Made by a program: the position numbers and the translations under genes. A model generated the notes under the pieces. That model was given only the letters and a program-made list of their open reading frames with translations, did not search any database and was not told the origin of the DNA. Below are positions 20,340 to 54,526 of a stretch of 64,000 nt of DNA, piece after piece; within the stretch, counting starts at the first letter, position 1; each line of letters starts with the position of its first letter. Origin of the DNA: an uncultured Pelagibacteraceae bacterium. Lineage in GTDB: Bacteria > Pseudomonadota > Alphaproteobacteria > Pelagibacterales > Pelagibacteraceae. The stretch is taken from the NCBI GenBank assembly GCA_902623415.1, contig CACNTU010000002.1, positions 10,519 to 74,518 of the forward strand, given 5' to 3'.

Positions 20340-20734
20340 TAAAATACCTTACAAATTATTTCGCCACCAACTTTTTGTTTTCTTGCATCTATGTCTGTCA
20401 TTACTCCTTTTGGAGTTGAAACAATAGCAATTCCTAAACCATTATTTATTTTAGGTAAGCTATCAGCAGATGAAAAAATTCTTCTTCCAGGTTTTGACAC
20501 TCTTTCAAAAGCACTAATTACTGGATTACCTGAATGGTACTTAAGCTCTAATGATAAAATTGGTTTTTTATCCTCAGAAATTACTTTAAAATCTTTTATA
20601 AAACCCTCATTTTTAAGTATATCTGCAATTTTTGTTTTAAAATTAGATGAAGGTAATTCAACTTTTTTATGATTTCTGGCTTGAGCGTTCTTCACTCTTG
20701 CAATCATATCTCCTATCGGGTCACTTAAACTCAT
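20339..20734 (-). CDS. rpsH: 30S ribosomal protein S8
   Basis: DPIGDMI, SKPGRR, STPKGVMT. Confidence 0.98.
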   Translation of the reverse strand: MSLSDPIGDMIARVKNAQARNHKKVELPSSNFKTKIADILKNEGFIKDFKVISEDKKPILSLELKYHSGNPVISAFERVSKPGRRIFSSADSLPKINNGLGIAIVSTPKGVMTDIDARKQKVGGEIICKVF

Positions 20735-20745
20735 AATTTTCCTTT

Positions 20746-21051
20746 CTACCAGCTAGATTTAACTAAACCAGGTATCTTTCCTTGTAATCCTAATTGTCTT
20801 AATGCAATTCTTGAAATCTTTAATTTTCTGTAAACACCATGAGGTCTTCCAGTAATCTCGCATCTATTCATAACTCTTGTTTTAGCCGAGTTTCTTGGCA
20901 GTTTAGATAATTTTTGTTGCGCTTTAAATCTTTCTTCTAGTGGAATCTTTTTATCCATTACAATCTTCTTTAATGTTTGTCTTTTCTTATAAAGCCTATC
21001 TGAAAGCTTAATTCTTTTTTTATTTTTATTAACAGCGCTTAACTTTGCCAT
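20746..21051 (-). CDS. rpsN: 30S ribosomal protein S14
   Basis: NRCEITGRP, IPGLVKSSW. Confidence 0.98.
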   Translation of the reverse strand: MAKLSAVNKNKKRIKLSDRLYKKRQTLKKIVMDKKIPLEERFKAQQKLSKLPRNSAKTRVMNRCEITGRPHGVYRKLKISRIALRQLGLQGKIPGLVKSSW

Positions 21052-21053
21052 GT

Positions 21054-21608
21054 TTAATTATCTCCTTTTTTAATAAATGGAAAATTCATTTTTTCTAGTA
21101 ATGCAAAACTATGCTCTTTGTTGATTGCTTTTATAACTATTACTATATCTAAACCTCTAACTTTGTCTGCTCTATCAAAGCTTACTTCTGGAAAAATTAT
21201 ATGCTCTTTAATTCCAAATGTATAATTACCAAATTTATCAAAGCCTTTTGATGACAAACCTCTAAAATCTTTAATCCTTGGTAATGCTATATTCACCAAT
21301 CTATCTAAGAATTCATACATTCTATTTTTTCTTAATGTTACCTTTAAACCAGCATTTGATCCTTTTCTAGTTTTAAAATTAGCTACTGATTTTTTAAATT
21401 TTGTTGTAACTGGTTTTTGTCCAGTAATTTTAGCCATATCTTCTTCACATGATTTTATAATTTTAGAGTCTGTGGCATCTAAACCGAGACCCATATTTAA
21501 AACAATTTTTTCAATTCTTGGAGTCATGTAAATATTTTTAAAACCAAACTGTTCTTTTAATGCAGGCTGTATTTCTTTATTGAATATTTCTTTTAATCTT
21601 GGTGTCAT
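21054..21608 (-). CDS. rplE: 50S ribosomal protein L5
   Basis: ITGQKP, LPRIKDFRG, EHIIFPE. Confidence 0.98.
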   Translation of the reverse strand: MTPRLKEIFNKEIQPALKEQFGFKNIYMTPRIEKIVLNMGLGLDATDSKIIKSCEEDMAKITGQKPVTTKFKKSVANFKTRKGSNAGLKVTLRKNRMYEFLDRLVNIALPRIKDFRGLSSKGFDKFGNYTFGIKEHIIFPEVSFDRADKVRGLDIVIVIKAINKEHSFALLEKMNFPFIKKGDN

Positions 21609-21853
21609 TATTTTTTAGCCTCTTTTTTCTTAGCCGCTTTTTCATCAATTAGTTTTAAGTTAGAAATATGGATAAAGCTTTCCTTTGGAAAAATTCCACC
21701 TTTTTTCTCTTTTGTTGTTTTAACGTGTTTTTTAGCCATATTTATTTCTTTAACTTTAGCTCTGTTATTAACTCTATCAATTTCAATAACCTCACCTTCT
21801 TTTTTTTTATCTTTTCCAGTTAAAACTCTTACTTTCAAACCTTTTTTAATCAT
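21608..21853 (-). CDS. rplX: 50S ribosomal protein L24
   Basis: KOW motif VLTGKDK, IHISNL; between rplN and rplE. Confidence 0.95.
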
Positions 21854-22221
21854 TATAAAACCTCCGGTGCCAAAGAAATAATTTTCATTTGACCTCTGCT
21901 TCTTAATTCTCTTGTAACTGGACCAAAAATTCTTGTTCCCACTGGCTCGCCTTTGTCATCAACTAGGACAGCGGCATTATTATCAAATCTTACTTTAGAA
22001 CCATCATTTCTGTGAATTCCCTTTTTAACTCTCACAACTACAGCTTTATGGACAGATCCTTTTTTAACTTTCCCTTTAGGTATCGCCTCTTTAACTGCAA
22101 TTACAATTGTATCACCAATACTAGCGTATCTTCTTTTTGATCCACCTAGAACTTTAATGCACTCAATTCTTTTTGCACCAGTATTATCAGCTACTTGCAA
22201 TTCTGTTTGAACACCAATCAT
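21853..22221 (-). CDS. rplN: 50S ribosomal protein L14
   Basis: [23 protein letters not shown]. Confidence 0.98.
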
Positions 22222-22457
22222 TACTTTCTACTCTCCATAACTTGAAATTTTTTATTTTTAGAAAAAGGTTTGCTCTCAATAATTGAAACCTTATCACCAG
22301 TTTTGAACTTATTATTTTCATCATGGGCGTTATAGTTTTTTCTAACTCTAATTACTTTTTTTAGAACTGGGTGAGAATATTTACGTTCTACCATAACAGT
22401 AACTGTTTTATTTGGTTTATCGCTTATAACTACACCTGTAAGTATTTTTTTAGGCAT
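22221..22457 (-). CDS. rpsQ: 30S ribosomal protein S17
   Basis: GVVISDK, AHDENN. Confidence 0.97.
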
Positions 22458-22641
22458 TTGCTTTTCCTTTTAAAATTGTTTTTAATCTTGCTATTGTTTT
22501 TCTAGTTTCCCCAATCTTTGCTGGGTTTGTTACTTGTGAATTCATTTTTTGAAATCTGAAATTAAAAAGATCTTTTTTAAGCTTATTAATATTCTTCACA
22601 ATTTCGTCCTTTGATAATTTTTTAATTTCTTGTTTTTTCAT
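22450..22641 (-). CDS. rpmC: 50S ribosomal protein L29
   Basis: [16 protein letters not shown]. Confidence 0.96.
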
Positions 22642-23051
22642 TATGCAAATCTCTTAATTGTTTTAGTCTTTATAGGTAATTTTGCTGATGCTTTGTACAG
22701 TGCTTCTTTTGCAATTTGCTCCGAAACACCATCAACTTCAAATAATATTCGTCCTGGTTTTACTCTACATGCAAAGTACTCAGGTGAACCCTTTCCTTTA
22801 CCCATTCTGACTTCAATAGGTTTTTTTGAAACTGGTATATTTGGAAATATTCTTGTCCAAACTCTACCTTGTCTTTTCATATGTCTTGTTAAAGCTACTC
22901 TTGCAGCTTCAATCTGTTTTCCTGTAACTCTTTCAGGCTGTAAAGCTTTTAATGCGTAAGCACCATAATTAATAGTACTTGCTCTAGTAGCATTACCATG
23001 AATTCTACCTTTATGCGCTTTTCTCCACTTTGTTCTTACTGGTTGAAGCAT
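22641..23051 (-). CDS. rplP: 50S ribosomal protein L16
   Basis: [15 protein letters not shown]. Confidence 0.98.
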
Positions 23052-23731
23052 TATTGTTTACCTTCCTTTGGTGTTACCTTGTTTGTCTCTTGGCTAAATT
23101 CTCTAGCAAAAACTTCACCTTTATAAATCCAAACTTTAATACCAATAATTCCATATGTTGTAAGAGCCTCTGCCTCTGCATAATCTATATCAGCTCTTAA
23201 AGTATGTGATGGAATGCTTCCATCTCTTAACCACTCTGTTCTAGCTATTTCATTTCCACCAAGTCTTCCACTAACTGATACTTTAATTCCTTTTGCTCCT
23301 AGTCTAATACATGATTGCATTGCTCTTTTCATAGCTCTTCTATAAGAAATTCTTTTAACAAGCTGTTGAGCTATGTTTTCAGCTACTAAATAAGCATTTG
23401 TTTCAGGTTTTTTAACTTCTTTAATATTTAGATTAACTTCATTTGAAGTTAATTTTGAAAGATTGTTTTTAATTTTGTCTATATCACTTCCTTTTTTACC
23501 AATTACAAATCCTGGTCTAGAAGTATAAATTGTGACATAACACTTATTAGATGTTCTTTCGATCATAACCTTGGATACACCTGAATTAATTACATTTTTC
23601 TTGATATATTCCCTAATTTTAAAATCTTCGATTAGATAATTTCCAAAATCTTTTTTCTTAGCATACCATACAGAGTCCCAACCTCTGTTGACACCTAATC
23701 TAAAACCTACCGGATTAACTTTTTGTCCCAT
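23051..23731 (-). CDS. rpsC: 30S ribosomal protein S3
   Basis: [23 protein letters not shown]. Confidence 0.98.
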
Positions 23732-42884: not shown

Positions 42885-43013
42885 TTTGGGGAAGTGTCCC
42901 CTTGTTCAATAAAGCTTCAAATAACAAGCGTTTTATATATTTTATTTATGCAAATGCAACACGTGATTTAATAGGAAAATATTAAAAAAACCGTATAAAA
43001 CAGATACAAATTT

Positions 43014-43757
43014 ATGAATAAATCATCATTTTTCATTGTTGGTCAACACGCAGTTATTGAAGCTCTTAGAAATCCTAAAAGAAAGGTTTTAAGAGTCTTT
43101 TTGACTGAGGAGTCTAAAAAAAATATTCATAGAAAAAGTCCAAATAAAAATCTTTTGGAAGATGTTAAAGTTTACTTTAAATCCAAAAAAGAATTAGACA
43201 AATATACTTCAAAAGAACAGTTAATGCATAATGGGTATGTTGCAGAGATTGAGCATTTAGATCAACCAGATCTGAAACAATTTATAAAAGGTAAAAATAA
43301 TTTAACATTTGTCTGTCTTGATGAAGTTACTGATCCAAGAAATATTGGTTCATTAATAAGAAGTGCAGCATCATTTGATATTCATGGATTAATAATTAAA
43401 GAGAGGCATTTTCCTCGTGATAGTAAGTTAATGTATAAATCAGCAAGTGGTTGTATAGAACACATGAATATATTCCAAGTATCCAACATTAATTCTACAC
43501 TAAAAAATTTAAGAGAAAAAAACTTCTGGGTTTATGGTTTTGATGCAAAAGGTCAAAAAAATTTCACAGATATAAAGTGGGAAGGAAACAATATTCTTCT
43601 TTTTGGTTCAGAAGGATTTGGTATGAGACAGCATACAGGGAAATATGCTGATTTTTTTGTAAAAATTAATATTAATAAAAATATCGAAAGTTTAAATATC
43701 TCAAATAGTGCAGCAATTGTATTTCATCACTTAAGTTATATTAAAAAAAAGAGTTGA
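43014..43757 (+). CDS. rlmB: 23S rRNA Gm2251 methyltransferase (SpoU/TrmH family)
   Basis: LDEVTDPRNIGSLIRSA, GSEGFG, ESLNIS; typical position between tRNA-Tyr and tRNA-Thr. Confidence 0.88.
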   Translation: MNKSSFFIVGQHAVIEALRNPKRKVLRVFLTEESKKNIHRKSPNKNLLEDVKVYFKSKKELDKYTSKEQLMHNGYVAEIEHLDQPDLKQFIKGKNNLTFVCLDEVTDPRNIGSLIRSAASFDIHGLIIKERHFPRDSKLMYKSASGCIEHMNIFQVSNINSTLKNLREKNFWVYGFDAKGQKNFTDIKWEGNNILLFGSEGFGMRQHTGKYADFFVKININKNIESLNISNSAAIVFHHLSYIKKKS

Positions 43758-43790
43758 TTATTTATCAAATTGTTAATAATTATTGCGCAT

Positions 43791-43866
43791 GCCCTTGTAG
43801 CTCAGCTGGTAGAGCAATTGATTTGTAATCAATAGGTCCGCGGTTCGAATCCGTGCGGGGGCACCA
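43791..43866 (+). tRNA. tRNA-Thr(TGT)
   Basis: GCCCTTGTAGCTCAG...TTTGTAA loop...GGTTCGAAT...CCA, 76 nt. Confidence 0.97.
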
Positions 43867-43912
43867 TCTCACTGAATTTTTGATCAAAATTTCTATGTTA
43901 AAAATTACTTTT

Positions 43913-43951
43913 GCAACATTAAGTGTTGCAGGATTGTTGCAAGATTGTTGC
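43913..43951. repeat. TGTTGC array, 11-bp period (one inverted plus three direct copies); putative recombinase arm sites
   Basis: GCAACA 43913; TGTTGC 43924, 43935, 43946. Confidence 0.7.
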
Positions 43952-43995
43952 TTAATCAAGTAATCGTTTAGTAAAATTCTATCTTAACACAAGGT

Positions 43996-44520
43996 TTATT
44001 GTAATTTAATAGAGTTATTTAAAACTTCTCCATCTTTCACTTTTGTATCTATAATTAAATTATTTCCAGAGGAAATAATTTGTGTCTCTCCCAAACTACC
44101 ATTTCCTGCAGATCCACCATTAGCTATTGCTTCCTGACATGTTCCACTGCTGTGTTTTAATCCGTGGGGATTACACAATTTTGGTGAATTAAAATGATTT
44201 GCAAAATGAGACTTCATCTTACCAGAATTACTAGCATCGCCACAAACATTACTTGTATAAGTTAGTTTACCACTATTAAGATCATACGAGTATTTTAAGA
44301 TTAGTTCCTGTCCTAATTCACATTTCATTAAACTAGTTGTAATAAATTTAGTTACTGTAGTATGATTTGATTTTGAAGCGCTAACTTTTGCTGCACTTGT
44401 ATAACCATTATAAGCAACCACTCCTACTGCAGCTAGAATACCTATGATAGCAACTACGACTAAGAGTTCTATTAACGTGAAGGCTTTATGTTTTATAGGG
44501 TTAGTCGAAAGTAACTTCAT
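43996..44520 (-). CDS. Type IV pilin-like protein 1
   Basis: KHKA|FTLIELLVVVAIIGILAAVGVVAY class III signal peptide with E5; start uncertain. Confidence 0.9.
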   Translation of the reverse strand: MKLLSTNPIKHKAFTLIELLVVVAIIGILAAVGVVAYNGYTSAAKVSASKSNHTTVTKFITTSLMKCELGQELILKYSYDLNSGKLTYTSNVCGDASNSGKMKSHFANHFNSPKLCNPHGLKHSSGTCQEAIANGGSAGNGSLGETQIISSGNNLIIDTKVKDGEVLNNSIKLQ

Positions 44521-44962
44521 AGTTTTTTCCCCTACACCTAGTTCTTATGTAATTATCATAAGTTGATAACATACCATCTTTGTATGGTACTCCATTCCAA
44601 GTTACATATTCAACATTACCATGATAAGTTGGGTTATACGGGTCTTTTACAATATTGGTAAGATGTTGCCCAACTGCTGTTATCAATTTTTTAGGACTTG
44701 TGGCATTAGAACAGTTATACTTAACTTTTGCTCCAGGTGTGTTTTTCCAATATTGTCCCTTTAATTCGATTTCACTTTCAATTTGACATAATGCATATTT
44801 CTCATTGATTAACTTAGACCACAATTGAAAGTTATTTTTACAAACAGACTCTTTTGCACTAGCTGTATAACCATTATAAGCAACCACTCCTACTGCAGCA
44901 AGAATACCAATGATTGCTACTACTACTAGGAGTTCTATTAGGGTAAAAGCTTTACGGTTCAT
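44501..44962 (-). CDS. Type IV pilin-like protein 2
   Basis: MNRKA|FTLIELL... prepilin motif; Cys-containing variable domain. Confidence 0.92.
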   Translation of the reverse strand: MNRKAFTLIELLVVVAIIGILAAVGVVAYNGYTASAKESVCKNNFQLWSKLINEKYALCQIESEIELKGQYWKNTPGAKVKYNCSNATSPKKLITAVGQHLTNIVKDPYNPTYHGNVEYVTWNGVPYKDGMLSTYDNYIRTRCRGKNYEVTFD

Positions 44963-44966
44963 AAAG

Positions 44967-45452
44967 TTACATTCTAGGTATTAATGTTGTTTCGATATCA
45001 TTTGCACCTGTTCCCCACCTTGAATTACAATCTATTCTGTCTTTGTCAGATCGATAGTTACAAGCTGTTCTTCCTATTTGAGAAACATTAGGAACATCCC
45101 AGTTCTGCCAAAATGCACCTTCGTTATCAGAATTGTTAAACGGGTTCTTGTATTGCGGATCCTCATTCAAACAGCTAAAGGCATAACTTACATTTGAATC
45201 ATAATTTTGATGTGCTGGTCTCATCTCACATTTTTTAGTTTGCGAGTTCCAAGCTTCGATTTGTCCATCAATTTCTACTCTAGTTAATTGAGCTGTAATT
45301 ATTTTAACCGCTAATGCATGGTTTGATTTTACTGCATTCACTTTAGCAGCATTTGTATACCCATTATAAGCAACTACCCCTACTGCAGCGAGGATGCCTA
45401 TAATTGCTACAACGACTAAGAGTTCTATTAATGTGAAAGCTTTACGGTTCAT
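44967..45452 (-). CDS. Type IV pilin-like protein 3
   Basis: MNRKA|FTLIELL... prepilin motif. Confidence 0.92.
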   Translation of the reverse strand: MNRKAFTLIELLVVVAIIGILAAVGVVAYNGYTNAAKVNAVKSNHALAVKIITAQLTRVEIDGQIEAWNSQTKKCEMRPAHQNYDSNVSYAFSCLNEDPQYKNPFNNSDNEGAFWQNWDVPNVSQIGRTACNYRSDKDRIDCNSRWGTGANDIETTLIPRM

Positions 45453-45458
45453 AAAAAA

Positions 45459-46082
45459 CTATTTTGTGCAACTGCTCCCTGAAACAATATCAGTTTTAAC
45501 TATAGCATTATCGTTACTATCAACATCGTAAGCCGTTTGAATCTTAAAACAACAAGAACCACTACAGTTAAATTCTTTAGCAACAGCGTTTGAAAATGGA
45601 ACACGCTCAACAATAACTGTGCCCAATGTGATACAACAAATGAACCCTGACATGCTTCCATTTCTTTGAAGTTGTTTAAATCTTTTATTGTAATCTTTAG
45701 CTCCTGAATAACTTAACATCGGGGATTCTTTAACACCAACTATGTCATTATTATATGGATTTTGCATCCCATACCACCACTTTCCTCCTTGTTGAAATCC
45801 AGCATGCTTATTTATAATTGGGCTCTGCATTCCAAGAGACTCGTTACAAGGTATATTAACTGTGTACCCATTTTTATTTACATAGCTAACTGGGTCACCA
45901 ATATCACATAAACCTAAAATTGATTGAACAGAATTTCTTACAATTGAATGTTGTTTAAGTGTAGCTTTTATTTTTGCACTTTTTGTATAACCATTATAAG
46001 CAACTACACCTACTGCAGCGAGAATACCGATGATGGCTACAACAACTAAGAGTTCTATTAATGTAAAACCATTAAGCTTCAT
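45459..46082 (-). CDS. Type IV pilin-like protein 4
   Basis: MKLNG|FTLIELL... prepilin motif; Cys-rich C-terminus. Confidence 0.92.
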   Translation of the reverse strand: MKLNGFTLIELLVVVAIIGILAAVGVVAYNGYTKSAKIKATLKQHSIVRNSVQSILGLCDIGDPVSYVNKNGYTVNIPCNESLGMQSPIINKHAGFQQGGKWWYGMQNPYNNDIVGVKESPMLSYSGAKDYNKRFKQLQRNGSMSGFICCITLGTVIVERVPFSNAVAKEFNCSGSCCFKIQTAYDVDSNDNAIVKTDIVSGSSCTK

Positions 46083-46098
46083 AAAAAAACTCTATCAC

Positions 46099-46115
46099 TG
46101 TTACCATATTGTTGC
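46099..46115. repeat. TGTT(A/G)C pair, 11-bp period; putative arm sites at the distal end of the Thr island
   Basis: TGTTAC 46099, TGTTGC 46110; same motif and orientation as 43924-43951. Confidence 0.55.
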
Positions 46116-46172
46116 CAAGCTAGAATCTTTTTTGAAAAATTATTGATAAACAATAATTATTTAAACTTTTAG

Positions 46173-46206
46173 AATTGATTTGTAATCAATACATCCGCGG
46201 ATCAAA
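46173..46206 (+). repeat. Degenerate 3'-part copy of tRNA-Thr (att-like remnant)
   Basis: AATTGATTTGTAATCAATAcaTCCGCGGaTCaAA versus tRNA AATTGATTTGTAATCAATAggTCCGCGGtTCgAA. Confidence 0.85.
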
Positions 46207-46209
46207 ATT

Positions 46210-46347
46210 TTACCAGGCTGTTAGTTTCCAACACTCATTAGCATCTTCAATACGAATATAACAACCGAGAAAAGACATAATTTTAAATGCACAAAAACCT
46301 CCAACTAAAATAATGACTACGAGTATTATTGGATTTATTTTTTTCAT
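46210..46347 (-). CDS. 45-aa putative single-pass membrane protein (not in ORF track)
   Basis: MKKINPIILVVIILVGGFCAFKIMSFLGCYIRIEDANECWKLTAW*; ATG 4 bp after nadK stop; fills the gap exactly. Confidence 0.6.
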   Translation of the reverse strand: MKKINPIILVVIILVGGFCAFKIMSFLGCYIRIEDANECWKLTAW

Positions 46348-46351
46348 TTGT

Positions 46352-47122
46352 TTAACTAGTCTCTCTTCTTATTTGTTCAATTTTAATTTTTTTTTGTAAA
46401 CTTCTATTTTTATCATAAAGGAGATTAAACTTTATTTTATTATTTGTTTTTACTGTAATTGATTTAGCATTTCTTACTTCTAAATTATCTGCTACAGCAC
46501 TGATAGGTCTCTTAGTTGGGTTTAAATTAATTATAACTATTTTAGTTTTATCATTAACTATTTTGCCCTTCCATCTTCTTGGTCTAAAAGCGCTTATTGG
46601 TGATATTGATAATTTTTTTGAATGAAGACTTAAAATAGGTCCATGAACAGAAAGATTATAAGCTGTACTACCGGCTGGTGTAGATACTAATACTCCATCA
46701 GAAACTAATTTTTTAATTATTTGTTTTGAACCTTGTCTAATAGATAATGAGGCAGCTTGCCTACTTTGTCTAAGTACAGATACTTCATTTATAGCTATAG
46801 ATCTCTTGGTTTGATTATTTTTATTTTTAACAATCATTTCTAGTGGAGAAATTGAAACTAAATTTGCTTTTGACAGGTTTTTTAAAATATCTTTTGAAGA
46901 AAATTTATTCATAAGAAAACCATAATTTCCAGAATTAATACCATAAAAATGTTTATTAGAATTTTTATTCTTTTTTAATGTTTGGAGCATAAAACCATCC
47001 CCACCAATAACAATTATGAGATTTTTTTTTTTAAACTGATTAAATTTTAATTTTTTTAATAATAAATTTTTAATACTTGACGATTTTTTATTTTTATCTG
47101 AAATAATTAAAAGCTTACTCAT
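46352..47122 (-). CDS. nadK: NAD kinase
   Basis: GGDGFML, GFLMN, NEVS, STPAGSTAYNLS. Confidence 0.94.
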   Translation of the reverse strand: MSKLLIISDKNKKSSSIKNLLLKKLKFNQFKKKNLIIVIGGDGFMLQTLKKNKNSNKHFYGINSGNYGFLMNKFSSKDILKNLSKANLVSISPLEMIVKNKNNQTKRSIAINEVSVLRQSRQAASLSIRQGSKQIIKKLVSDGVLVSTPAGSTAYNLSVHGPILSLHSKKLSISPISAFRPRRWKGKIVNDKTKIVIINLNPTKRPISAVADNLEVRNAKSITVKTNNKIKFNLLYDKNRSLQKKIKIEQIRRETS

Positions 47123-47126
47123 TTAG

Positions 47127-47182
47127 TGGTACCCTTGGCCTCAAATTGGCACTCCACAAGCGGCGAGGATTTTAAGTCCTTT
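47127..47182 (-). repeat. Degenerate 3'-part copy of tRNA-Leu (att-like remnant)
   Basis: Aligns to 48741-48800 with several substitutions and a 4-bp gap; ends with shared core TTTTAAGTCCTTT. Confidence 0.88.
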
Positions 47183-48800
47183 ATATTAATATTTATCATG
47201 GTCACTGAATTAAACCAAAATCTAGTTGTTTTTCACTATCGTCTCTTGATCTTGGTATTGATAATGCGGGATCAATATTTGATTGTGGAATATCTAAATT
47301 AAATTTTTTGTCTAAAAAATCAAAAGAATTAACAAGCATCATTTTATTAAATTTTTTATTATTTATTTTATACATCCCTACTGACAGTGCTTCTTTTGTC
47401 ATTTCTTTCGTGGGCTCTCTCGTGCTGATAAATATTCCCCCTAGAGCATTATTTTTTTGAACAGTACGATTAAATTCTCTCACTTCCTTAACACCTATAT
47501 TTTTTCCTCCCTTAACTGAAATTAATATCTTTTTATAATCCTCTTTAGAATCAAACGTTTTAATATAAATCAATCCATCTATACCACCATCAGCTCCCTT
47601 TTTAATTGAACCATCTGACTTCCTAACGTAATCTTGAGCACCAGGAATGTTGTTAACTGCCCAATGTTGAAATTCATACCACTTGTCTGAACCAATCTCT
47701 TTTGCTTCTTTTAGCATGTTGTCTAAATCTCGTTTAGTTTTGGGTAAACCATGGACTTTAAAATTACTTTTTGGAAAAGCATTTTCAATATTATTTTTTA
47801 TTATATTGATTGATAAACACGTTATGTCAATTCCTATCCATTTCAATCCTAGTTCTTCGGCTACATGTATGCTAGTACCACAACCTGCGAAAGGATCTAA
47901 AACTGTATCACCTTTTTGAGTAGATGATTGAATTATTCTTCTGAGTAATCTTCTTGGTTTTTGAGTGGGATATCCTGTTCTTTCTGGATCAGAAGAACTT
48001 AGAGGTTGGATTTCCCACCAATCCTCTGGATGTTTCCCTTTTTCGTTTGGTTTATATGAGTCATAAACTTTATCTCCTCTAAAAGCTTTGGCTTTTGAAT
48101 TTTTGAGTCTTTCTGCAGATGCTTCTGAATAAGGTATTCTCACAGGATCAACATTAAAAAAGTAATCTTTTGTTTTTGAATATCTAAATATTACATCATG
48201 TTTCTTAGCGAAATCTTTTTTAGAAACTCCTCCACCTCTGTAACACCAAATAATTTCATTTCTAAAATTTTTAACACCAAAAATGTTATCCATAATAAGT
48301 TTAATATAATGACTTGCTGTAGGATCGCAGTGAAGGAAAATAGTTCCGTTCGGTTTTAATATATTTCTTAATAAATTTAATCTAGCAGAAATATTTACTA
48401 AATAAGATAGCATATCACTTTCAGCCAAAAAACTTTTTAGAGCGGTTAAAAAATCTTTAATTTGTGTATTCGCTTCACCTAACATAAAATCATCATAAAC
48501 TTTTGCTGTATATTCATCCCACTTCCAAAAATCGGAAAATGCAATAGTCTGTGCTTTATTAAAAGACCCATCTGGTGTTGGAAAAAAAATATTATAATTT
48601 CTCTTACTATTAAAAGGTGGATCTAAATAAATAAGATCAACAGAATCATTTTTGATTTGTTTCAATACTTCAAGATTATCGCCGTAAAATAATTGATTCA
48701 CTTATAAACTATATCAAAGATATTCTAATTATTAAATAAGTGGTGCCCTCGGCCAGACTCGAACTGGCACTCCGCAAGCGGCAAGGATTTTAAGTCCTTT
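47170..48800. mobile_element. One-gene island on the 3' side of tRNA-Leu carrying a DNA methyltransferase fusion
   Basis: Flanked by intact tRNA-Leu and its decayed 3' copy in direct orientation; no integrase. Confidence 0.72.
47202..48701 (-). CDS. Beta-class N6A/N4C DNA methyltransferase with C-terminal Mrr-like nuclease-fold domain
   Basis: YLDPPF precedes YPTQKP and LDPFAGCGT; C-terminal ADGGIDG...ISVKGG...VREF...GIFIS. Confidence 0.85.
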   Translation of the reverse strand: MNQLFYGDNLEVLKQIKNDSVDLIYLDPPFNSKRNYNIFFPTPDGSFNKAQTIAFSDFWKWDEYTAKVYDDFMLGEANTQIKDFLTALKSFLAESDMLSYLVNISARLNLLRNILKPNGTIFLHCDPTASHYIKLIMDNIFGVKNFRNEIIWCYRGGGVSKKDFAKKHDVIFRYSKTKDYFFNVDPVRIPYSEASAERLKNSKAKAFRGDKVYDSYKPNEKGKHPEDWWEIQPLSSSDPERTGYPTQKPRRLLRRIIQSSTQKGDTVLDPFAGCGTSIHVAEELGLKWIGIDITCLSINIIKNNIENAFPKSNFKVHGLPKTKRDLDNMLKEAKEIGSDKWYEFQHWAVNNIPGAQDYVRKSDGSIKKGADGGIDGLIYIKTFDSKEDYKKILISVKGGKNIGVKEVREFNRTVQKNNALGGIFISTREPTKEMTKEALSVGMYKINNKKFNKMMLVNSFDFLDKKFNLDIPQSNIDPALSIPRSRDDSEKQLDFGLIQ

Positions 48801-48826
48801 GTGTCTACCAATTTCACCACGAGGGC
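48741..48826 (-). tRNA. tRNA-Leu(TAA)
   Basis: GCCCTCGTGGTGAAATTGGTAGAC...CTTAAAA loop, long variable arm, GTTCGAGT...CCA. Confidence 0.96.
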
Positions 48827-48908
48827 ATTTGTGAATTTCATGAGTGTTTATGCTAATATTTATAATTGAACAAGGTTAATAAGTAAAATTTTTTTATTTT
48901 ATCTTCCT

Positions 48909-48930
48909 ATGTGCTGGTCTTGTGCTGGTT
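48909..48930. repeat. ATGTGCTGGTCTTGTGCTGGTT (2x TGTGCTGGT, 11-bp period); putative arm sites
   Basis: Exact second copy at 51666-51687. Confidence 0.85.
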
Positions 48931-48956
48931 GTCCTATAAAATCCTATATCTAAAAT

Positions 48957-48976
48957 GTTCTATTAAGGTGAAGGCT
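48957..48976 (-). other. Truncated pilin N-terminal coding stub (AFTLIE)
   Basis: Minus strand A GCC TTC ACC TTA ATA GAA C; reads TTG-K-N-R-A-F-T-L-I-E-H then diverges and stops. Confidence 0.8.
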
Positions 48977-48983
48977 CTATTCT

Positions 48984-49490
48984 TCAACAATAGCCTCCGT
49001 AATCAGATATATCTATCTGATCAGTAAGTTTATCTTTATTATCATTATAGACAGTTTCTATATGAATTATTGGTTTTGAGTTCGTACATCTATTATAAAA
49101 TTCAACAGACCCTTTTATCCCTCTTGGGCCAAAGTTTATTGCGGGATATGTTGGATCATTAAAAGGATGATCTTTTATAACACACCTTAAATGATAAACC
49201 ATATTATTCATAACTGTGCTTACAGATGCAGGAAAAGTTTTAATATTTTGCGATCTACCACAGTTAAAATCTTTTGTTGAGAGTCTATTATTAAAATAAC
49301 CACCATTTATATTTGCTTGCAAAAATGTTGTGTGTAAAAATTTTACTGCGGTTTTGTGATTAGATTTAGCAGCATTAATTTTAGCTGCATTAGTATACCC
49401 ATTATAAGCAACAACACCTACTGCAGCTAGTATACCGATGATTGCTACAACGACTAGGAGTTCTATTAGGGTGAAAGCTTTTTTATTCAA
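48984..49490 (-). CDS. Type IV pilin-like protein 5
   Basis: TTG start, NKKA|FTLIELL... prepilin motif. Confidence 0.9.
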   Translation of the reverse strand: MNKKAFTLIELLVVVAIIGILAAVGVVAYNGYTNAAKINAAKSNHKTAVKFLHTTFLQANINGGYFNNRLSTKDFNCGRSQNIKTFPASVSTVMNNMVYHLRCVIKDHPFNDPTYPAINFGPRGIKGSVEFYNRCTNSKPIIHIETVYNDNKDKLTDQIDISDYGGYC

Positions 49491-50105
49491 TCACCAACCT
49501 TTTCGTGTATCACGTATTTCCTTTTTTAAAGTTACACAGTTTTTAGAACAATCTCCAGATTTATTAGTATCATCATATTGAGATGTTATTAAAATTATAC
49601 AGACTGGATTGCAGCTTTTAACAGTAACATGGATACCTCCTTTTAGGGGACTATCAAATGCGTTACCAGGGTCCCAAGCAGCTTTAAATTTTTTTCCAAA
49701 CCTTGTATTATAACCTCCTTCTTCATAAGGATTTAACCATTGAACTCCTTTTATTTTTCCACCTTTTGTACCACCTGCTGAATTCTTTGCATGATTAATA
49801 AGAAAATTTATTAATTGTCCTGCCCTACCTGCTCTTCCTCCACCACCAGATATATTACACGAATAATTATAATAATTTGGATCCTCTTGTTTATACATCA
49901 ATGACATGTTTTCAGCTCCCAGCTGACACGTTGCAAGTTCTGCTTCTACTAATTTTACAAAAGTATTAAATTGTGATTTCACGGTTGCTTTATTAGCACC
50001 AATTGTAAATTTAGAATAAGCAACAACCCCTACTGCAGCAAGAATACCGATGATGGCTACAACGACTAACAGTTCTATTAGAGTGAAGGCTTTATGTTTA
50101 GCCAT
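49491..50105 (-). CDS. Type IV pilin-like protein 6
   Basis: MAKHKA|FTLIELL...VVAYSKF prepilin motif; Gly-rich variable domain. Confidence 0.92.
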   Translation of the reverse strand: MAKHKAFTLIELLVVVAIIGILAAVGVVAYSKFTIGANKATVKSQFNTFVKLVEAELATCQLGAENMSLMYKQEDPNYYNYSCNISGGGGRAGRAGQLINFLINHAKNSAGGTKGGKIKGVQWLNPYEEGGYNTRFGKKFKAAWDPGNAFDSPLKGGIHVTVKSCNPVCIILITSQYDDTNKSGDCSKNCVTLKKEIRDTRKGW

Positions 50106-51615
50106 ATAAATTCAAAGTTTTCACAAGCTCAGGATTTTGAAACCAATTATCAATCCATGATTTAATATATGATTTAACAGATTCTATACGTTGCTCTCTT
50201 GAGGCATTATCCAAACATGTTTCAAGGGGCTCTAAATACTGAAGTTTTCTTGATTGTTTTTGTTGTTTATTTTCCTTATCGACTTTAGGAATTTTAAAAT
50301 CATATTTAACATTATTACAAACGATATATCTCTTTGGTTTATAAATAGTAACTTCTGACACTAAAATTTCATTAAATAAATTAAGATCATTTTTGTAATT
50401 ATTTAAATTATTCAATGTCAAATATGCTTTTGATATATACGAACCAGTTTTTTTTTTTAAATCTACATTTTTATTAAATAACTTAATTGCAAGATCCTTA
50501 TTTTTTTCGACATTGCCCCAACCATTAAAATATATTATTGCGGGATAAGTACTTACAAAATTATTTGAATCTTTTGGGTTTTTAATTTTACTTTGAAAGT
50601 TTTCCATAAGCACAATAGCTTTTTTAAAGTCAGTTTTTTTATCAGAGCATTCATATATTGATTTAGTTACATCCATTGATGTTCTGCCTAATAATGAAAA
50701 TGTATAATACGCTGTATTCAATAAAGAATCATTTTCGTACAAATAATTATTATATTTTAAAATAAATAAACACTCATCTTTATCTTTTTTCAAATCAAAA
50801 TTCTTGGAAACGTCCATAAGATAGTCTTCCATAGCTAAAAGGTAACCTTCTTTTGCAGCCTCTTTATAAATCTTTATTCTTTCTTCAATGCCTACTTTGG
50901 CGGTATAGGATCCTGTATATATAAGAGCTGGATTATATAATTTTTTTTTATCTAATGAGGCTAAATATCTCTTGAATAAATACTCATCATTAATTTCATA
51001 CAGCGTATAAAAAGATGTTGGATATGTAGCTAGTATATCTTTGGCGATTTGGCTACCTTTGTGAGCCTCCTTTAATAATATTCTAGTAGCCTTACAATGA
51101 TTAAAATTAAATAGATTTTCATCTTTTAGAGCGTAAACTTCTTTAACAAATGAATAAGGTTTGAATTGGAAATAATCTATAAATTGTGTGTGAGCTTTAA
51201 AGAAATATTGAGAGTATTTTCCATATCCAGTGTATGCTATACCAGTTGAATAACATTCTCCCCATTCATCATTCCAAACAATATACTCAAACAGAACTCT
51301 TTCTTTTAAATTTTTATAACCACCTAATGAAATTAAACTTACAATAACACTAAAAATAAAAACACAAACTAAACCTTCAATTGTGTAAAATACGTGTTTA
51401 AATTTTTTTCGAATTTTTTTATAGTATTTAAATATCTTAATCTTATTTCTAAGCACCCATATATATGCAAATGTTATGGGCATTATTAGTGCTACTAATC
51501 CAAATAAATCACTTAAGTTCTGAATTTTTTTATCCAATTGTAAGCCAAGTGCCAAAGCTACAATCCAAAGAATTATATAAAAATAAAATGGTGGTTTTTT
51601 AAAATTAAAATTCAT
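50098..51615 (-). CDS. Hypothetical membrane protein, about 3 N-terminal TM helices, possible Sel1-like repeats
   Basis: Hydrophobic N-terminal segments; YKEAAKEGYLLAM and YFNGWGNVEKNKDLAIKLF resemble Sel1 consensus. Confidence 0.65.
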   Translation of the reverse strand: MNFNFKKPPFYFYIILWIVALALGLQLDKKIQNLSDLFGLVALIMPITFAYIWVLRNKIKIFKYYKKIRKKFKHVFYTIEGLVCVFIFSVIVSLISLGGYKNLKERVLFEYIVWNDEWGECYSTGIAYTGYGKYSQYFFKAHTQFIDYFQFKPYSFVKEVYALKDENLFNFNHCKATRILLKEAHKGSQIAKDILATYPTSFYTLYEINDEYLFKRYLASLDKKKLYNPALIYTGSYTAKVGIEERIKIYKEAAKEGYLLAMEDYLMDVSKNFDLKKDKDECLFILKYNNYLYENDSLLNTAYYTFSLLGRTSMDVTKSIYECSDKKTDFKKAIVLMENFQSKIKNPKDSNNFVSTYPAIIYFNGWGNVEKNKDLAIKLFNKNVDLKKKTGSYISKAYLTLNNLNNYKNDLNLFNEILVSEVTIYKPKRYIVCNNVKYDFKIPKVDKENKQQKQSRKLQYLEPLETCLDNASREQRIESVKSYIKSWIDNWFQNPELVKTLNLYG

Positions 51616-51665
51616 AGGCTAATCTTATCAATAAATTTATTAGGTAGTAATCAAATTATCTTTCC

Positions 51666-51687
51666 ATGTGCTGGTCTTGTGCTGGTT
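51666..51687. repeat. ATGTGCTGGTCTTGTGCTGGTT second copy; putative arm sites
   Basis: Identical to 48909-48930, same orientation. Confidence 0.85.
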
Positions 51688-51762
51688 TTCACAAATTAAT
51701 TAACTCTTATTTTCTAATCTTAATTGAAAGCTAAATTAAAGTTATGAGATTTTATAGGATGT

Positions 51763-51790
51763 TTAGACTGCCTTGGACTACTATGGACTG
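51763..51790. repeat. Three 10-bp-period repeats (TTAGACTG/TTGGACTA/ATGGACTG)
   Basis: gtttagactg ccttggacta ctatggactg. Confidence 0.55.
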
Positions 51791-51812
51791 ACTTTAACTT
51801 CTATCCCTCGGC

Positions 51813-51851
51813 TTTTAAGTCCTTTGTGTCTACCAATTTCACCACGAGGGC
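51813..51851 (-). pseudogene. 5'-half copy of tRNA-Leu(TAA) ending at the anticodon loop
   Basis: 39 bp identical to 48788-48826. Confidence 0.9.
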
Positions 51852-51980
51852 ATTAATGAATTTCATGAGTGTTTATGCCAATATTTATAATTGAACAAGA
51901 GGAATAAGTAAAATTTTTTTATTTTATCTCCCTAGGTACAAGTCTAGTACAAGTTCTCCCATATTATCCTATATCTAAAA

Positions 51981-52001
51981 AGTTCTATTAAGGTGAAGGC
52001 T
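51981..52001 (-). other. Truncated pilin N-terminal coding stub (KAFTLIEL)
   Basis: Directly after pilin stop: (T)AA A GCC TTC ACC TTA ATA GAA CT; 20 bp identical to 48957-48976. Confidence 0.8.
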
Positions 52002-52508
52002 TTATTGCCAGTGATATACTTTTTTCTCATAAATTTTATTTGAACCTTGACTGTCTCCTAAATTACCACAAATTCTAAAATATTTTTTACCATTACTCTC
52101 AGTTCCCCACATGAAATGAATATAACCTTGGCTTGGATTACAGTTTTGGCTTGTGCTAACAGCAAGCACTTTTGAGTCATAAGCATTTTGTTGATTCCAC
52201 GTCCACATTATATGATTATAAAAACCATGCATCTTTTGCTCAACTGAAGAATTGTTACAATGACCAGGATTGTATAATGTTTGACCCCATCCTGCTGGAG
52301 CATGTAAACCTAAGCTGCCTCCGTCTATTTCACACATAGCCATTTTGGTTGCCATAAACTTTTCGATGTCGTCAACTTGTCTTTTAACAACATTAACCTT
52401 TGCACTTTTAGTGTACCCATTATAAGCAACCACTCCCACCGCAGCCAAAATACCGATGATGGCTACAACTACTAAGAGTTCTATTAATGTAAAACCATTT
52501 CTTTTCAT
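52002..52508 (-). CDS. Type IV pilin-like protein 7
   Basis: MKRNG|FTLIELL...; start set at ATG 52508 overlapping upstream stop (ATGA). Confidence 0.92.
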   Translation of the reverse strand: MKRNGFTLIELLVVVAIIGILAAVGVVAYNGYTKSAKVNVVKRQVDDIEKFMATKMAMCEIDGGSLGLHAPAGWGQTLYNPGHCNNSSVEQKMHGFYNHIMWTWNQQNAYDSKVLAVSTSQNCNPSQGYIHFMWGTESNGKKYFRICGNLGDSQGSNKIYEKKVYHWQ

Positions 52509-53089
52509 CTGTGAATAATGCAAACAATTGTACTTAAAACTTTGTCAGAACCTGTTGATGAAAAAGTCCAATACTCATCTGTGAGACCGGATTGAACTAC
52601 CATTTCTCTATCACATCCATTTTTTTCAACAGTCAAACTATAAAGACCAATTTGTCCTTTGCACATTTTTTTACCAAGGTGAGCTGACTGTATAGAGGTC
52701 ATATCAGTCCAACCAGACCAAATATCACAAGTTCTATCTTTACCTACACTTCCATACGGATTTTTTACCATACCTTGATATCCAATGTGTGTTTGCAAAA
52801 CATTTTCGTGAAATGGTGTCTTGTTATAGTCTGTAACGTTAGAGCAATCTTTATTTTGACCACCGCCACTATTATTAGTTTGTCTAAAGATTGTCCCTCC
52901 ATTCATAACACACTTCATAGCGTCAGCTTGAATCCATTTTACAATTGCTTTATGATTTTGCTTAACAACAGCTTTTTTAGCAGAACTTGTATACCCATTA
53001 TAAGCAACAACACCCACTGCAGCTAGAATACCGATAATGGCTACAACGACTAAAAGTTCTATTAGGGTGAAGCCTTTTTGTTTAATCAT
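52505..53089 (-). CDS. Type IV pilin-like protein 8
   Basis: MIKQKG|FTLIELL... prepilin motif; six Cys in variable domain. Confidence 0.92.
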   Translation of the reverse strand: MIKQKGFTLIELLVVVAIIGILAAVGVVAYNGYTSSAKKAVVKQNHKAIVKWIQADAMKCVMNGGTIFRQTNNSGGGQNKDCSNVTDYNKTPFHENVLQTHIGYQGMVKNPYGSVGKDRTCDIWSGWTDMTSIQSAHLGKKMCKGQIGLYSLTVEKNGCDREMVVQSGLTDEYWTFSSTGSDKVLSTIVCIIHR

Positions 53090-53141
53090 GGCTGTCCTAT
53101 TTCTGTAGTTTCATAATCAAGAGTCAATATTTAAAAATATG

Positions 53142-54122
53142 TTATTTTAATATATTATATAATTCATCAGCAACATATTTGTGTCCAAAATCACTTAAGT
53201 GACCATCAACTCTAAATGTATATTTTTCACCAATATCAAAATCATAATAATTTAAATTGTTAAAATTATTTGATTTACCTTTTGGAAAATTGCGAAATTT
53301 CATGTCATATCCATTTACGTAAAAAACTATTATTTCTTTATTTTTTAAAATTTGACTTTCTCTAAGTCTCTTCTCGAATAAATCTTTGTGGTTATTAAAG
53401 TCCATCAATTGATTTTTTTTAGTCAAAATATCAATTGGAATAGTTAATGCATATCTAAAGGATTTTCTAAGTTTTTTAAAGAAAGACATTGATTTGCTTT
53501 TTACAATAATATCAAATTTTTCTTTAGCTATAATCTGATTATTTTTTTTGAAATCTTTATTTTCACTATAGTCATTATAACAATATTGGATTATTACTGT
53601 GCTAGCTTTATTTATTAAATTAGATTTTTCTAATCTAATTAACTCTCTTGCAGTTCCATAGCCAGAGACTGCCAAATTATATACAGGTCTATTAATTTTA
53701 TGTTCTAAAATAGAAGAAAAAGTATCACCATCATTTACACCCCAGCCCATCGCATGTGAATCACCAAGCACAACAATACCGTTATTATCATTTGGTGGAT
53801 GGTTAGAAAATCTTCCAAAATCGTCAAATTTTAAACTAGTATCAAACTCAATATTTTTAAAATCGCATGATGTTTTTTTTGGGACAAAAATTAATTCTTT
53901 ATCATAATCAATGCAATTTTCATTGGATTGCCAAATTTCTCTAATACCTCCAAATTGATAAAAATTTCTTTGATAATCTCTAATTAACTTAAAGTCAGGA
54001 GTAATTTTATTCACTAAAAGAAAAGCACTAAAAATATAAAGCGAAAAAAAAATAAATATATAATTTATTAAAATTAAAAAAATTATACCTAAAATTTTTG
54101 AAAAAAATTTTTTTTTAAGCAT
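53142..54122 (-). CDS. Membrane-anchored SGNH/GDSL hydrolase-like protein
   Basis: N-terminal TM; VLGDSHAMG, NLAVSGYG, YND, DGHLSDFGH blocks. Confidence 0.8.
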   Translation of the reverse strand: MLKKKFFSKILGIIFLILINYIFIFFSLYIFSAFLLVNKITPDFKLIRDYQRNFYQFGGIREIWQSNENCIDYDKELIFVPKKTSCDFKNIEFDTSLKFDDFGRFSNHPPNDNNGIVVLGDSHAMGWGVNDGDTFSSILEHKINRPVYNLAVSGYGTARELIRLEKSNLINKASTVIIQYCYNDYSENKDFKKNNQIIAKEKFDIIVKSKSMSFFKKLRKSFRYALTIPIDILTKKNQLMDFNNHKDLFEKRLRESQILKNKEIIVFYVNGYDMKFRNFPKGKSNNFNNLNYYDFDIGEKYTFRVDGHLSDFGHKYVADELYNILK

Positions 54123-54124
54123 TA

Positions 54125-54526
54125 CTAACCAATTAATGCCGTGGTGAGGTGTCTTTTATCTAATTTGCAGTCGCTGTATCCACGTTTAACTATATTTAAA
54201 TATCTTTCAGTAGGAAATTTAAAAGGTGTTTTTTTTACCATTGTGTAAGTCATCACTTTTTTTCCATAATAATAAAAGTAATATTTTTTATAAAGATTTG
54301 GAAAATCCTCATATACGTCTAATTTTTTTTCATCACTTTTAGAAATTTCATATAATGCACCTGGAACAATAAAATTTTTTTTTGGTTCAATATCTGCAGC
54401 TCTATACTTACTTCTAAAAGTTAATTTAAAATTCTTTAAATTTATTTTTTTTAAAAAAATACTATCTTTACATCTTCGTTTCATTTGAAAATGATGAAGA
54501 TTACTACCATAAGCAAAATACAGCAT
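54125..54526 (-). CDS. Gamma-glutamylcyclotransferase family protein
   Basis: YFAYGSNL, LDVYED motifs. Confidence 0.88.
   Translation of the reverse strand: MLYFAYGSNLHHFQMKRRCKDSIFLKKINLKNFKLTFRSKYRAADIEPKKNFIVPGALYEISKSDEKKLDVYEDFPNLYKKYYFYYYGKKVMTYTMVKKTPFKFPTERYLNIVKRGYSDCKLDKRHLTTALIG

Follow-up and report, generated by a model that had tools for sequence, protein, structure and literature searches.

The most abundant bacterial group in the ocean, SAR11, carries its flexible genes in small islands of unexplained origin, and integrases and transposons are almost absent from it. Among the closest described systems are the Prochlorococcus tycheposons, for which relatives in other marine bacteria have been reported (Hackl et al., 10.1101/2020.12.28.424599). 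What these have in common with the system described here is a tRNA-targeting tyrosine recombinase in a streamlined ocean bacterium, tandem accretion in which partial tRNA copies split the units, and remnants that are scattered through islands. Our locus lies in a 64,000-nucleotide (nt) stretch of DNA (hereafter, the window) from an uncultured Pelagibacteraceae bacterium (GenBank assembly GCA_902623415.1, contig CACNTU010000002.1, positions 10,519 to 74,518 of the forward strand), in which three arrays of type IV prepilin genes stand at two tRNA genes, tRNA-Thr(UGU) and tRNA-Leu(UAA). We consider it likely that these tRNA genes, located on either side of ppnK, are two hotspots that hold stacked integrase-less cassettes, and that the heads of the encoded pilins are reassorted by recombination.

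Tycheposons bear their integrase at one of the two ends and may also contain a small module for replication, whereas the window units are without an integrase and yet retain both attachment (att) arms, are much smaller (1.6-3 kb) and have pilins as cargo; moreover, the units at tRNA-Leu lie on the 5' side and supply the 5' half of the tRNA. Pelagiphages of the HTVC019P type integrate in SAR11 tRNA genes, including tRNA-Leu, and supply the tRNA 5' end (10.1101/410191). The core inside the tRNA, the phage-supplied 5' end and the tRNA-Leu target are thus shared with the window islands, but the attachment site of these phages (attP) lacks paired 11-mers and their integrases are short; the islands instead resemble elements with large recombinases. 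For SAR11 islands without mobile elements, the main text of PMC11796062 describes partial tRNA repeats that mark cassette insertions, and the main text of Wilhelm 2007 (PMC2217521) lists pilins in hypervariable regions (HVR) 1 and 4, describes HVR4 as tRNA-flanked and reports no attC in the variable regions. By gene lists, our locus could be matched to neither HVR3 nor HVR4 of HTCC1062. Those islands come from the same organism group and likewise lack a canonical mobile element; the main texts do not describe arm repeats, a fixed geometry, matching circular integrase elements, the pilin cargo found here or head exchange. The literature therefore already covers partial-tRNA cassettes of SAR11 and the integration of pelagiphages at tRNA-Leu, as well as tycheposons. 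In the main texts of the literature searched, we found neither the paired arm repeats with their geometry and their identity with the att layout of large-recombinase elements, nor a cargo of pilin arrays at this locus or pilin heads that are uncoupled from their N-termini.

Streptococci contain units known as cis-mobilizable elements (CIMEs), which are flanked by attL and attR, lack recombination genes and form tandem stacks at a tRNA-type site with elements that bear an integrase; they are thought to move with a helper, and mobilisation has been shown in streptococci. CIMEs derive from conjugative elements, and their hosts and integrase families differ from those of the window islands. Our islands may be CIME-like: both arms are kept and in most cases matched, but an exact search of IMG/VR found no integrase element with the window's own 11-mer. 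In the pilE/pilS system of Neisseria, variable regions of the pilin are exchanged via conserved sequence by gene conversion. Neisseria has one expression locus and promoterless silent copies without the N-terminus, whereas all pilin genes of the window are full-length and the sole truncated piece is a 25-nt stub. Integron cassettes differ as well, since the window has no integrase and its repeats are tRNA parts and 11-mers, not attC. In Pseudomonas aeruginosa, divergent pilin alleles and an accessory gene lie beside tRNA-Thr (Kus 2004, as summarised in PMC11626772); according to that summary, each strain has one pilin allele, whereas our window has eight pilin genes and the genome no fewer than 16, all of them complete. 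Type IV pili are phage receptors (10.1101/150227), and it has been put forward that SAR11 is protected from phage by varying its surface, including its pilins (PMC6811365).

The assembly belongs to the Pelagibacteraceae (SAR11) and comprises 894 kb in 47 contigs, with a completeness of 71%. The eight prepilin open reading frames (ORFs) of the window all match the Pfam family N_methyl (PF07963) above its cut-off (E 1e-7 to 1e-9) and all lie on the minus strand, in agreement with the initial annotation, which had described eight prepilin genes in three same-strand arrays of 4, 2 and 2. Their leaders end in KA or NG, directly followed by FTLIE and then by LLVVVAIIGILAAVGVVAY, as in class III signals. 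Each gene is full-length and has its own leader and start codon, and in array 1 the N-terminal 28 amino acids (aa) are identical while the heads are unrelated. The pilus machine is encoded on another contig of the assembly, C13 (PilB, PilC, PilD [A24, 1e-34], PilM/N, PilQ, PilT and a PilY1-like protein), so that a prepilin peptidase and an assembly machine are both present in the same genome. Within the window, we found no pilus assembly gene and no integrase (no match to PF00589 or PF00239), as had also been stated initially. The genome contains at least 16 major-pilin-like paralogs with the conserved N-terminal block and 19 N_methyl matches; outside the window, seven more of these pilins are on C13 beside minor pilins and one more is on C21. 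Five of the C13 pilins stand in tandem beside pilC/pilB at the contig end. A unit of pilin, 902-aa protein and pilin, which lies beside pilD here, is found on the tRNA-Leu side in genome L060 (901 aa; pilin head 86% identical).

A 505-aa protein is a recurrent partner of the pilin arrays. Its gene overlaps the start of the first array 2 pilin gene, and in six of the seven contexts seen it is directly upstream of pilins; it also adjoins pilins in L056, L058, L125 and L127. The protein gave an atlas lead to Sel1 (score 0.89) and a weak Sel1-repeat signal, and its function may be of that kind, the Sel1-repeat lead being the only one. Its family is unannotated and consists of 75 clusters, the named sources of which are marine metagenomes and Pelagibacteraceae genomes. 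A homolog without a pilin lies just upstream of the trigger factor gene in another genome (L126:5001-6542, GCA_902564645.1), in the neighbourhood of the other tRNA-Leu site used by HTVC011P/025P-type pelagiphages; this homolog gives a hint of one cargo in circulation among several tRNA hotspots.

The islands are bounded by pieces of the tRNA genes beside which they lie. The tRNA-Leu 5' half, together with approximately 155 nt of upstream region (the module), is repeated at 51810-52006 and is there 89% identical to 48785-48981. In more than 20 loci, all extra tRNA-Leu copies begin at query position 44-50, which is the anticodon loop, and carry 75-150 nt of upstream module, and the partial copies of tRNA-Thr in relatives span positions 28-76 at 100%. 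Direct tRNA-part repeats with a sharp common boundary thus stand at both ends of the islands, and the arrays lie beside a tRNA or tRNA half, as had been recognised in the initial annotation. The partial tRNA copies of the window are the only ones in the whole assembly, and the same layout occurs in many related genomes; we therefore regard it as more than a chance arrangement.

Inside these boundaries, tandem repeats with a period of 11 bp recur at fixed distances. Counted from where a tRNA-Leu 5'-half copy starts, a pair of 11-mers is found at +118 to +122 (+119 in general), and a second pair, with the same motif within an island, is found at -146 to -149 (-147 in general) from the next copy outward. 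With a match defined as at least 15 of 18 positions, the arm pairs were matched in 28 of 33 non-redundant islands, a sample that is enriched for the motif GTGCTGG by the way in which it was collected; every island with another motif (14/14) matched its own partner. In the window, island 2 has two copies of GTGCTGGTCTT at +121 (48909) and again at -147 (51666), as well as three GGACT units near -45, where the circular element L026 (see below) has three GAGACTA units, and island 3 begins with two copies of GTACAAGTCTA. The Thr island has TGTTGC-type repeats inside both ends; repeats of the same kind flank the att site of L046 and the Thr islands of L016 and L060, and its outer end is 88% identical to the equivalent end in L060. 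The island-specific 11-bp-period repeats that had been reported at these positions were thus recovered, and both att arms, abutting the cargo, are kept in islands that lack an integrase. From their position, period and pairing, we infer that the 11-mers are integrase arm-binding sites.

Integrase-bearing elements with the same att sites exist. Exact searches of IMG/VR with the 36-nt tRNA-Leu 5' half and the 43-nt tRNA-Thr 3' part matched 19 and 2 contigs, respectively, and in 19 viral contigs the tRNA-Leu 5' half (39-43 nt) is matched exactly beside integrases. In contigs of T7-like pelagiphages, a 42-43-nt match lies between the RNA polymerase gene and the gene for a 283-297-aa integrase (PF00589, 9e-21 and 1e-24). 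The 7.7-kb contig L026 (IMGVR_UViG_3300025897_001356), which is circular by its 99-bp exact terminal overlap, has the tRNA-Leu 5' half as its attP and encodes a 545-aa tyrosine recombinase (PHROG_1, 4e-20), an AEP primase-helicase, a RusA-like resolvase and three unknown ORFs; capsid genes were not found in it. With its integrase, its primase, its size and its circular form, L026 fits the published description of tycheposons and looks like a tycheposon-like or satellite-like element in SAR11. Relatives of its integrase occur in L038, L040, L041 and L043. Two SAR11 single-cell genomes have relatives as well: in a Mediterranean one (L056/L084) they are integrated at the locus, and one more lies in the other (L097). 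For the other tRNA gene, L046 carries a 328-aa integrase (1e-18) next to 56 nt that match the tRNA-Thr 3' part exactly. In GenBank phage records, searches with the tRNA-Leu module and the tRNA-Thr flank returned phage tRNA genes only and no attP with the module. As a separate observation, L043 additionally carries a 966-aa ResIII/Mrr helicase, possibly a defence cargo.

The att cores of L026, L040, L041, L043 and L046 are flanked on both sides by element-specific tandem pairs of 11-mers, with the motifs GACCCTAG, GGGTAAC, TTACTAGTT and TGCGGAC. The arms lie at +121 and approximately -150 in L026 and at +120 and -152 in L040, and the layout of module copy 1 in the window is that of the arm of circular L026. 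Paired 11-mers are absent from the attP sites of the T7-like pelagiphages, which are for this reason not obvious helpers. Given this absence and the shared geometry, the islands are integrated units of the large-recombinase att family minus the recombinase. The tycheposon layout of an inward-facing recombinase at one end, an optional replication module, a tRNA target and cargo is seen in L026, L041, L043 and L056; the window islands consist of cargo and att ends only, and they are best called derivatives or remnants of tycheposon-like elements.

To place the locus among relatives, 40 of them were searched with the tRNA-Leu module and 13 unselected loci were fetched. The conserved order in relatives is rlmB, tRNA-Thr, ppnK, tRNA-Leu(UAA), variable DNA, AIG2-like, cinA, sfsA and map. 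Throughout the genus, both tRNA genes serve as hotspots of integration. Some genomes, the complete L019 for example, have the tRNAs directly abutting ppnK; many relatives have one to three extra tRNA-Leu 5'-half copies, with stacks of up to three to four copies, and copies of the tRNA-Thr 3' part are likewise stacked on the other side. The cargo between the copies varies by genome and includes enzymes, transporters and secreted proteins. Pilins were found at the locus in none of the 13 unselected relatives and in at least eight other genomes, among them L060, with 11 pilins in the interval, and L125, one of two further genomes reached via the 505-aa protein, with 10 pilins in the stretch from ppnK to rlmB. 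The window's distal unit has a counterpart with 93.6% identity in L058, where it is tRNA-proximal. Because the cargo is varied and the unselected loci lack pilins, the tRNAs are general insertion hotspots rather than pilin sites. We therefore abandon the earlier notion of a system dedicated to pilins, since most relatives carry unrelated cargo and the junction of module and pilin stub was found in only 6 of 400 genomes.

Contigs from four seawater metagenomes contain empty-site joints, from 43867 to 46366 (without the pilin island) and from 47108 to 48741 (without the methylase island). The summed metagenome depth is much lower over the cargo than over the backbone, which fits rare variants, although this depth cannot safely be read as abundance. 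Two observations concern the islands themselves. The methylase/Mrr fusion at 47202-48701 (499 aa), the island of which has no arm repeats, also matches NA-iREase1, and judging from these domains it is likely a defence or restriction-modification gene. In L056 (SAG-MED01), a 25-nt piece of the tRNA-Thr anticodon arm (5511-5535) lies between two pilin arrays inside a tRNA-Leu stack, as if a segment with pilins had left the Thr hotspot for the Leu hotspot and taken its att scar along.

The heads of the pilins are exchanged independently of their N-termini. In a comparison of 48 pilins from seven genomes, 32 heads were singletons with no relative above 50% identity, and one head family appeared at three loci: beside lpdA on C13 in this genome, on the tRNA-Leu side of L060 and in the Thr island of L059. 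Three orthologous pairs of heads are 97.7-98.5% identical in DNA, whereas the N-terminal blocks (108 nt) of the same gene pairs are only 81-89% identical, against a paralog background of 77 +/- 9%. Two of these pairs involve window pilins: the 168-aa head of array 2 is 97.8% identical in DNA to one in L060, and the 173-aa head of array 3 is identical as protein and 97.8% identical in DNA to that of the tRNA-proximal pilin of L058. Followed segment by segment in these two pairs, the identity is 100% in the tRNA part, 90-93% in the module, 62% in the arm repeats, 97.8% in the head and 81% in the N-terminal block, beyond which the next pilin upstream is unrelated in the compared genomes. The head is thus younger than both of its flanks, a pattern that marks transfer by recombination; one crossover would lie within the conserved N-terminal DNA and the opposite one within the stub or the module. 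The second layer of the initial proposal, namely pilin exchange through the N-terminal coding DNA, accordingly holds: heads that are about 98% identical stand behind N-terminal blocks of 81-89%, next to other neighbours and other arm repeats. Both integration at the tRNA cores and exchange through the N-terminal DNA also withstand the objection that breakpoints might fall at random.

The stub, which had been noted as closing two of the arrays and does so, consists of 25 nt with the codons of ..AFTLIE without a gene body (48958-48982 and 51983-52007). A search with 36 nt and at most three mismatches located the module-stub junction in the 6 of 400 other genomes of the genus mentioned above; five of the six loci around these junctions carry multi-pilin arrays, on the Thr or the Leu side, and L055 has one pilin at its end. 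In the four loci that were checked (L057-L060), the stub is directly beside the end of a pilin gene. It is best read as the putative fossil of a crossover in a lost downstream pilin, inherited by a small cassette family. An active attachment site was considered for the stub and rejected, since it forms one conserved fossil junction (at least 33 of 36 bases) of that family.

Full prepilins are also encoded in low-GC T7-like viral contigs of IMG/VR (L129:3442-3972, L130:1332-1889, L131:5983-6513, L132:1071-1649, L133:5251-5781 and L134:5935-6516). Their N-terminus is nearly that of SAR11 (KGFTLIELLVVVAIIGILAAVGTVAY...), with N-terminal DNA 68-75% identical to that of window pilins, and the head is approximately 37% identical to a window pilin. 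By PHROG matches, L130 encodes an RNA polymerase as well as a large terminase and an endolysin, whereas a DNA polymerase is encoded in L133; GenBank phage records gave no match to these prepilins. They are possibly morons that act on the pilus of the host, or else a path by which pilin genes travel.

We propose that small integrative elements would have been inserted serially by tyrosine-recombinase crossover in the anticodon-loop region, each incoming element bringing the tRNA 3' part at tRNA-Thr, or the 5' half with its upstream region at tRNA-Leu, and pushing the older copy outward. What remains are integrase-less cassettes of 0.8-6 kb that have both arms with cassette-specific 11-bp pairs and resemble non-autonomous derivatives of tycheposon-like elements. 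In this lineage, their cargo comprises type IV major-pilin paralogs and a membrane protein with possible Sel1-like repeats. Homologous recombination within and between cassettes reassorts the heads, with crossovers in the approximately 100-nt conserved N-terminal coding block and, on the other side, in the N-terminal block of the next pilin, the stub or the module. The cassettes may still be movable, whether by a helper integrase acting in trans or by RecA-type exchange between repeated modules, through the approximately 200 nt of portable homology at each island end, and the benefit may be escape from pilus-dependent phages or another frequency-dependent pressure.

Several results weigh against this proposal. 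The genome, only 71% of which is represented, contains no PF00589 integrase and no PF00239 resolvase, and phmmer searches of all its ORFs with eight element integrases gave no match; an island-borne integrase, which a strict definition of a genomic island demands, is accordingly missing. The GTGCTGG tandem is present at more than 30 Pelagibacteraceae loci, and an exact IMG/VR search for an integrase-bearing element with the tandem of this commonest arm motif, GTGCTGGTCTT, found none. A strict exact-match scan of metagenome contigs for the GTGCTGG arm-core-arm junction of an excised circle was also negative, which is weak evidence, and no back-joints at the cores were among the matches listed for contigs of the four metagenomes over 43000-54200, where contigs drop rare forms. 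Matched arms do not prove present integrase action, since they would also survive homologous recombination between modules, and the T7-like pelagiphage attP sites share the core and, as described above, have no paired 11-mers. Finally, the N-termini of paralogs in this genome consist of the same amino acids, yet 49% of the same-residue codons differ. Exchange is thus only occasional and does not homogenise, and the protein sequence appears to be held by selection; gene conversion that homogenises N-termini within the genome is ruled out by the same figure. The first layer of the initial proposal, in which whole mini-islands move at tRNAs, therefore stands in one part: sharp anticodon-loop boundaries, a stacking order that differs between genomes, matched arms and the integrase elements strongly support an origin by site-specific integration, whereas movement in trans is not shown, given that neither a cognate GTGCTGG integrase nor a circle was found. 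The proposed checks gave a similar picture, since metagenome contigs yielded empty sites and no circular form, and elements were found with the same cores and not with the GTGCTGG arms. These same negatives (the genome without an integrase, the missing circular forms and the viromes without a GTGCTGG-arm helper) would be expected if the islands were dead scars, that is, immobile leftovers of decayed prophages or satellites whose variation among strains reflects homologous recombination with the conserved flanks. The partial copies at 46173-46206 and 47126-47182 are indeed decayed, matched arms have been lost in 5 of the 33 islands, and the main text of PMC11796062 reports SAR11 islands without canonical mobile elements. 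Nevertheless, both arms are intact at fixed distances in the other 28, although nothing encoded by the islands needs them; the integrase is cleanly missing and the arms abut the cargo, unlike the outcome of random decay; and related integrase elements are known from circular contigs and, in integrated form, from a SAR11 cell. We thus regard dead scars as a possible but clearly less probable explanation than derived cassettes.

The exchange of heads at conserved N-terminal DNA, the stub that closes two arrays (with its junction in 6 of 400 genomes, beside a pilin end in L057-L060) and the 16 or more pilin paralogs of the genome could also be taken to indicate dedicated, programmed pilin switching, with cassettes and stub as an evolved machine similar to Neisseria pilE/pilS. 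We find this improbable: all copies are complete with a leader and show no division into silent cassettes and an expression locus, most relatives hold unrelated cargo at these att sites, the stub represents a single fossil junction passed on by descent and not a repeated recombination signal, and the arrays have neither a recombinase nor a switching element linked to them. An artefact, either a chimeric single-cell assembly or one local tandem duplication, is suggested by the appearance of the genome, which with its 47 contigs and 71% completeness looks like a single-cell assembly, and by the 89% likeness of the two module copies. We consider this highly implausible, because the two units are closer to other genomes (93% to L060 and 93.6% to L058) than to each other and differ in their arm motifs, many independent assemblies share this architecture, and pieces of it are found in contigs from four metagenome studies.

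Stacked cassettes with reassorted pilin heads would offer a testable mechanism for the flexible genes of SAR11, with att cores in two tRNAs, 11-bp arm pairs at fixed distances and, as a candidate helper family, the recombinases of approximately 545 aa on 7.7-kb circles. Pilus subunits are among the traded genes, with at least 16 paralogs in this genome, compared with a genome size of approximately 1.3 Mb in complete relatives. Recombination acts on the exposed heads without regard to the conserved stem, which points to a way for a streamlined genome to vary its surface and bears on phage-host dynamics and on any role of the pilus in DNA uptake in SAR11. More speculatively, SAR11 would hold a large family of miniature integrase-less att cassettes, each with its own arm pair, that are moved in trans by a diversified family of large tyrosine recombinases on small circular primase-encoding elements; combined with head shuffling, possibly via pilin-carrying pelagiphages, this would amount to phage-driven variation of the pilus surface. 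We offer this wider picture tentatively and doubt that it will hold in full; if it did, populations long held to be without mobile elements would possess a pilus-surface variation system.

Table 1. Features of the pilin locus in window coordinates, with the pilin paralogs on other contigs of the assembly
Feature	Position	Strand	Basis or remark
rlmB-like SpoU rRNA methylase	43014..43757	+	Pfam SpoU_methylase 1.4e-36; syntenic in relatives; conserved left flank of hotspot
tRNA-Thr(UGU), intact attachment site, island 3' of tRNA	43791..43866	+	ARAGORN
Inner arm repeats of Thr island, TGTTGC-type, 11-bp period, ~3 units	43917..43951		sequence
Array 1, four closely spaced or overlapping prepilin genes (174, 153, 161, 207 aa)	43996..46082 (ORFs 43996-44520, 44501-44962, 44967-45452, 45459-46082)	-	PF07963
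Outer arm repeats of Thr island, TGTTAC/TGTTGC, 11-bp period	46098..46120		sequence
Decayed partial tRNA-Thr (anticodon arm onwards), the displaced native 3' part	46173..46206	+	88%
45-aa ORF without family match, part of flexible stretch	46210..46347	-	
ppnK (NAD kinase), backbone gene between both tRNAs	46352..47122	-	Pfam; present in all relatives
Decayed displaced 3' part of tRNA-Leu, abutting ppnK and bordering the methylase island	47126..47182	-	91% over 43 nt
Single-gene island 3' of tRNA-Leu: DNA methylase with Mrr-type nuclease-like domain	47202..48701	-	Pfam N6_N4_Mtase 4.9e-49, Mrr_cat 3.4e-10
tRNA-Leu(UAA), used from both sides, core in anticodon loop	48741..48826	-	ARAGORN
Module copy 1: tRNA upstream region, inner arm GTGCTGGTCTT x2 (48909-48930), pilin stub (48958-48982)	48827..48983		
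Array 2, two prepilin genes (168, 204 aa)	48984..50105 (ORFs 48984-49490, 49491-50105)	-	PF07963
505-aa membrane protein, possibly with Sel1-like repeats	50098..51615	-	no Pfam or PHROG match
Outer arm of island 2: GTGCTGGTCTT x2 (51666-51688, -147 from core) and GGACT x3 at 11-bp spacing (~51766-51800)	51666..51800		
Displaced tRNA-Leu 5' half (51813-51852) and module copy 2 with arm GTACAAGTCTA x2 (51934-51955) and stub (51983-52007)	51813..52007		
Array 3, two prepilin genes (173 aa, start probably the ATG at 52508; 194 aa)	52002..53089 (ORFs 52002-52523, 52505-53089)	-	PF07963
GDSL/SGNH hydrolase, flexible cargo	53142..54122	-	Pfam Lipase_GDSL
Pilin paralogs outside the window	C13:1-2526, 19760-23466; C21:202-711		

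The window has a low GC content of approximately 30%. The GDSL/SGNH hydrolase gene had initially been taken as the right flank of the locus. It is itself flexible, being missing at the equivalent place in L060, L014 and L019 and having a low, cargo-like cover in metagenome contigs, and the conserved flank instead begins at the AIG2-like gene, at 54125. The 45-aa ORF is missed out in the empty-site contigs that join 43867 to 46366. Three IMG/VR contigs (L031:1279-1560, L036:6812-7093 and L044:8534-8810) contain a tRNA-Leu(UAA) gene that is split in the anticodon loop by approximately 195 nt, the insert of L031 being a group I intron by score (Rfam RF00028, 54 bits, E 4e-13). The exons of these split phage tRNA-Leu genes are 92-100% identical to the SAR11 tRNA-Leu, and the intron interrupts exactly the integrase att core.

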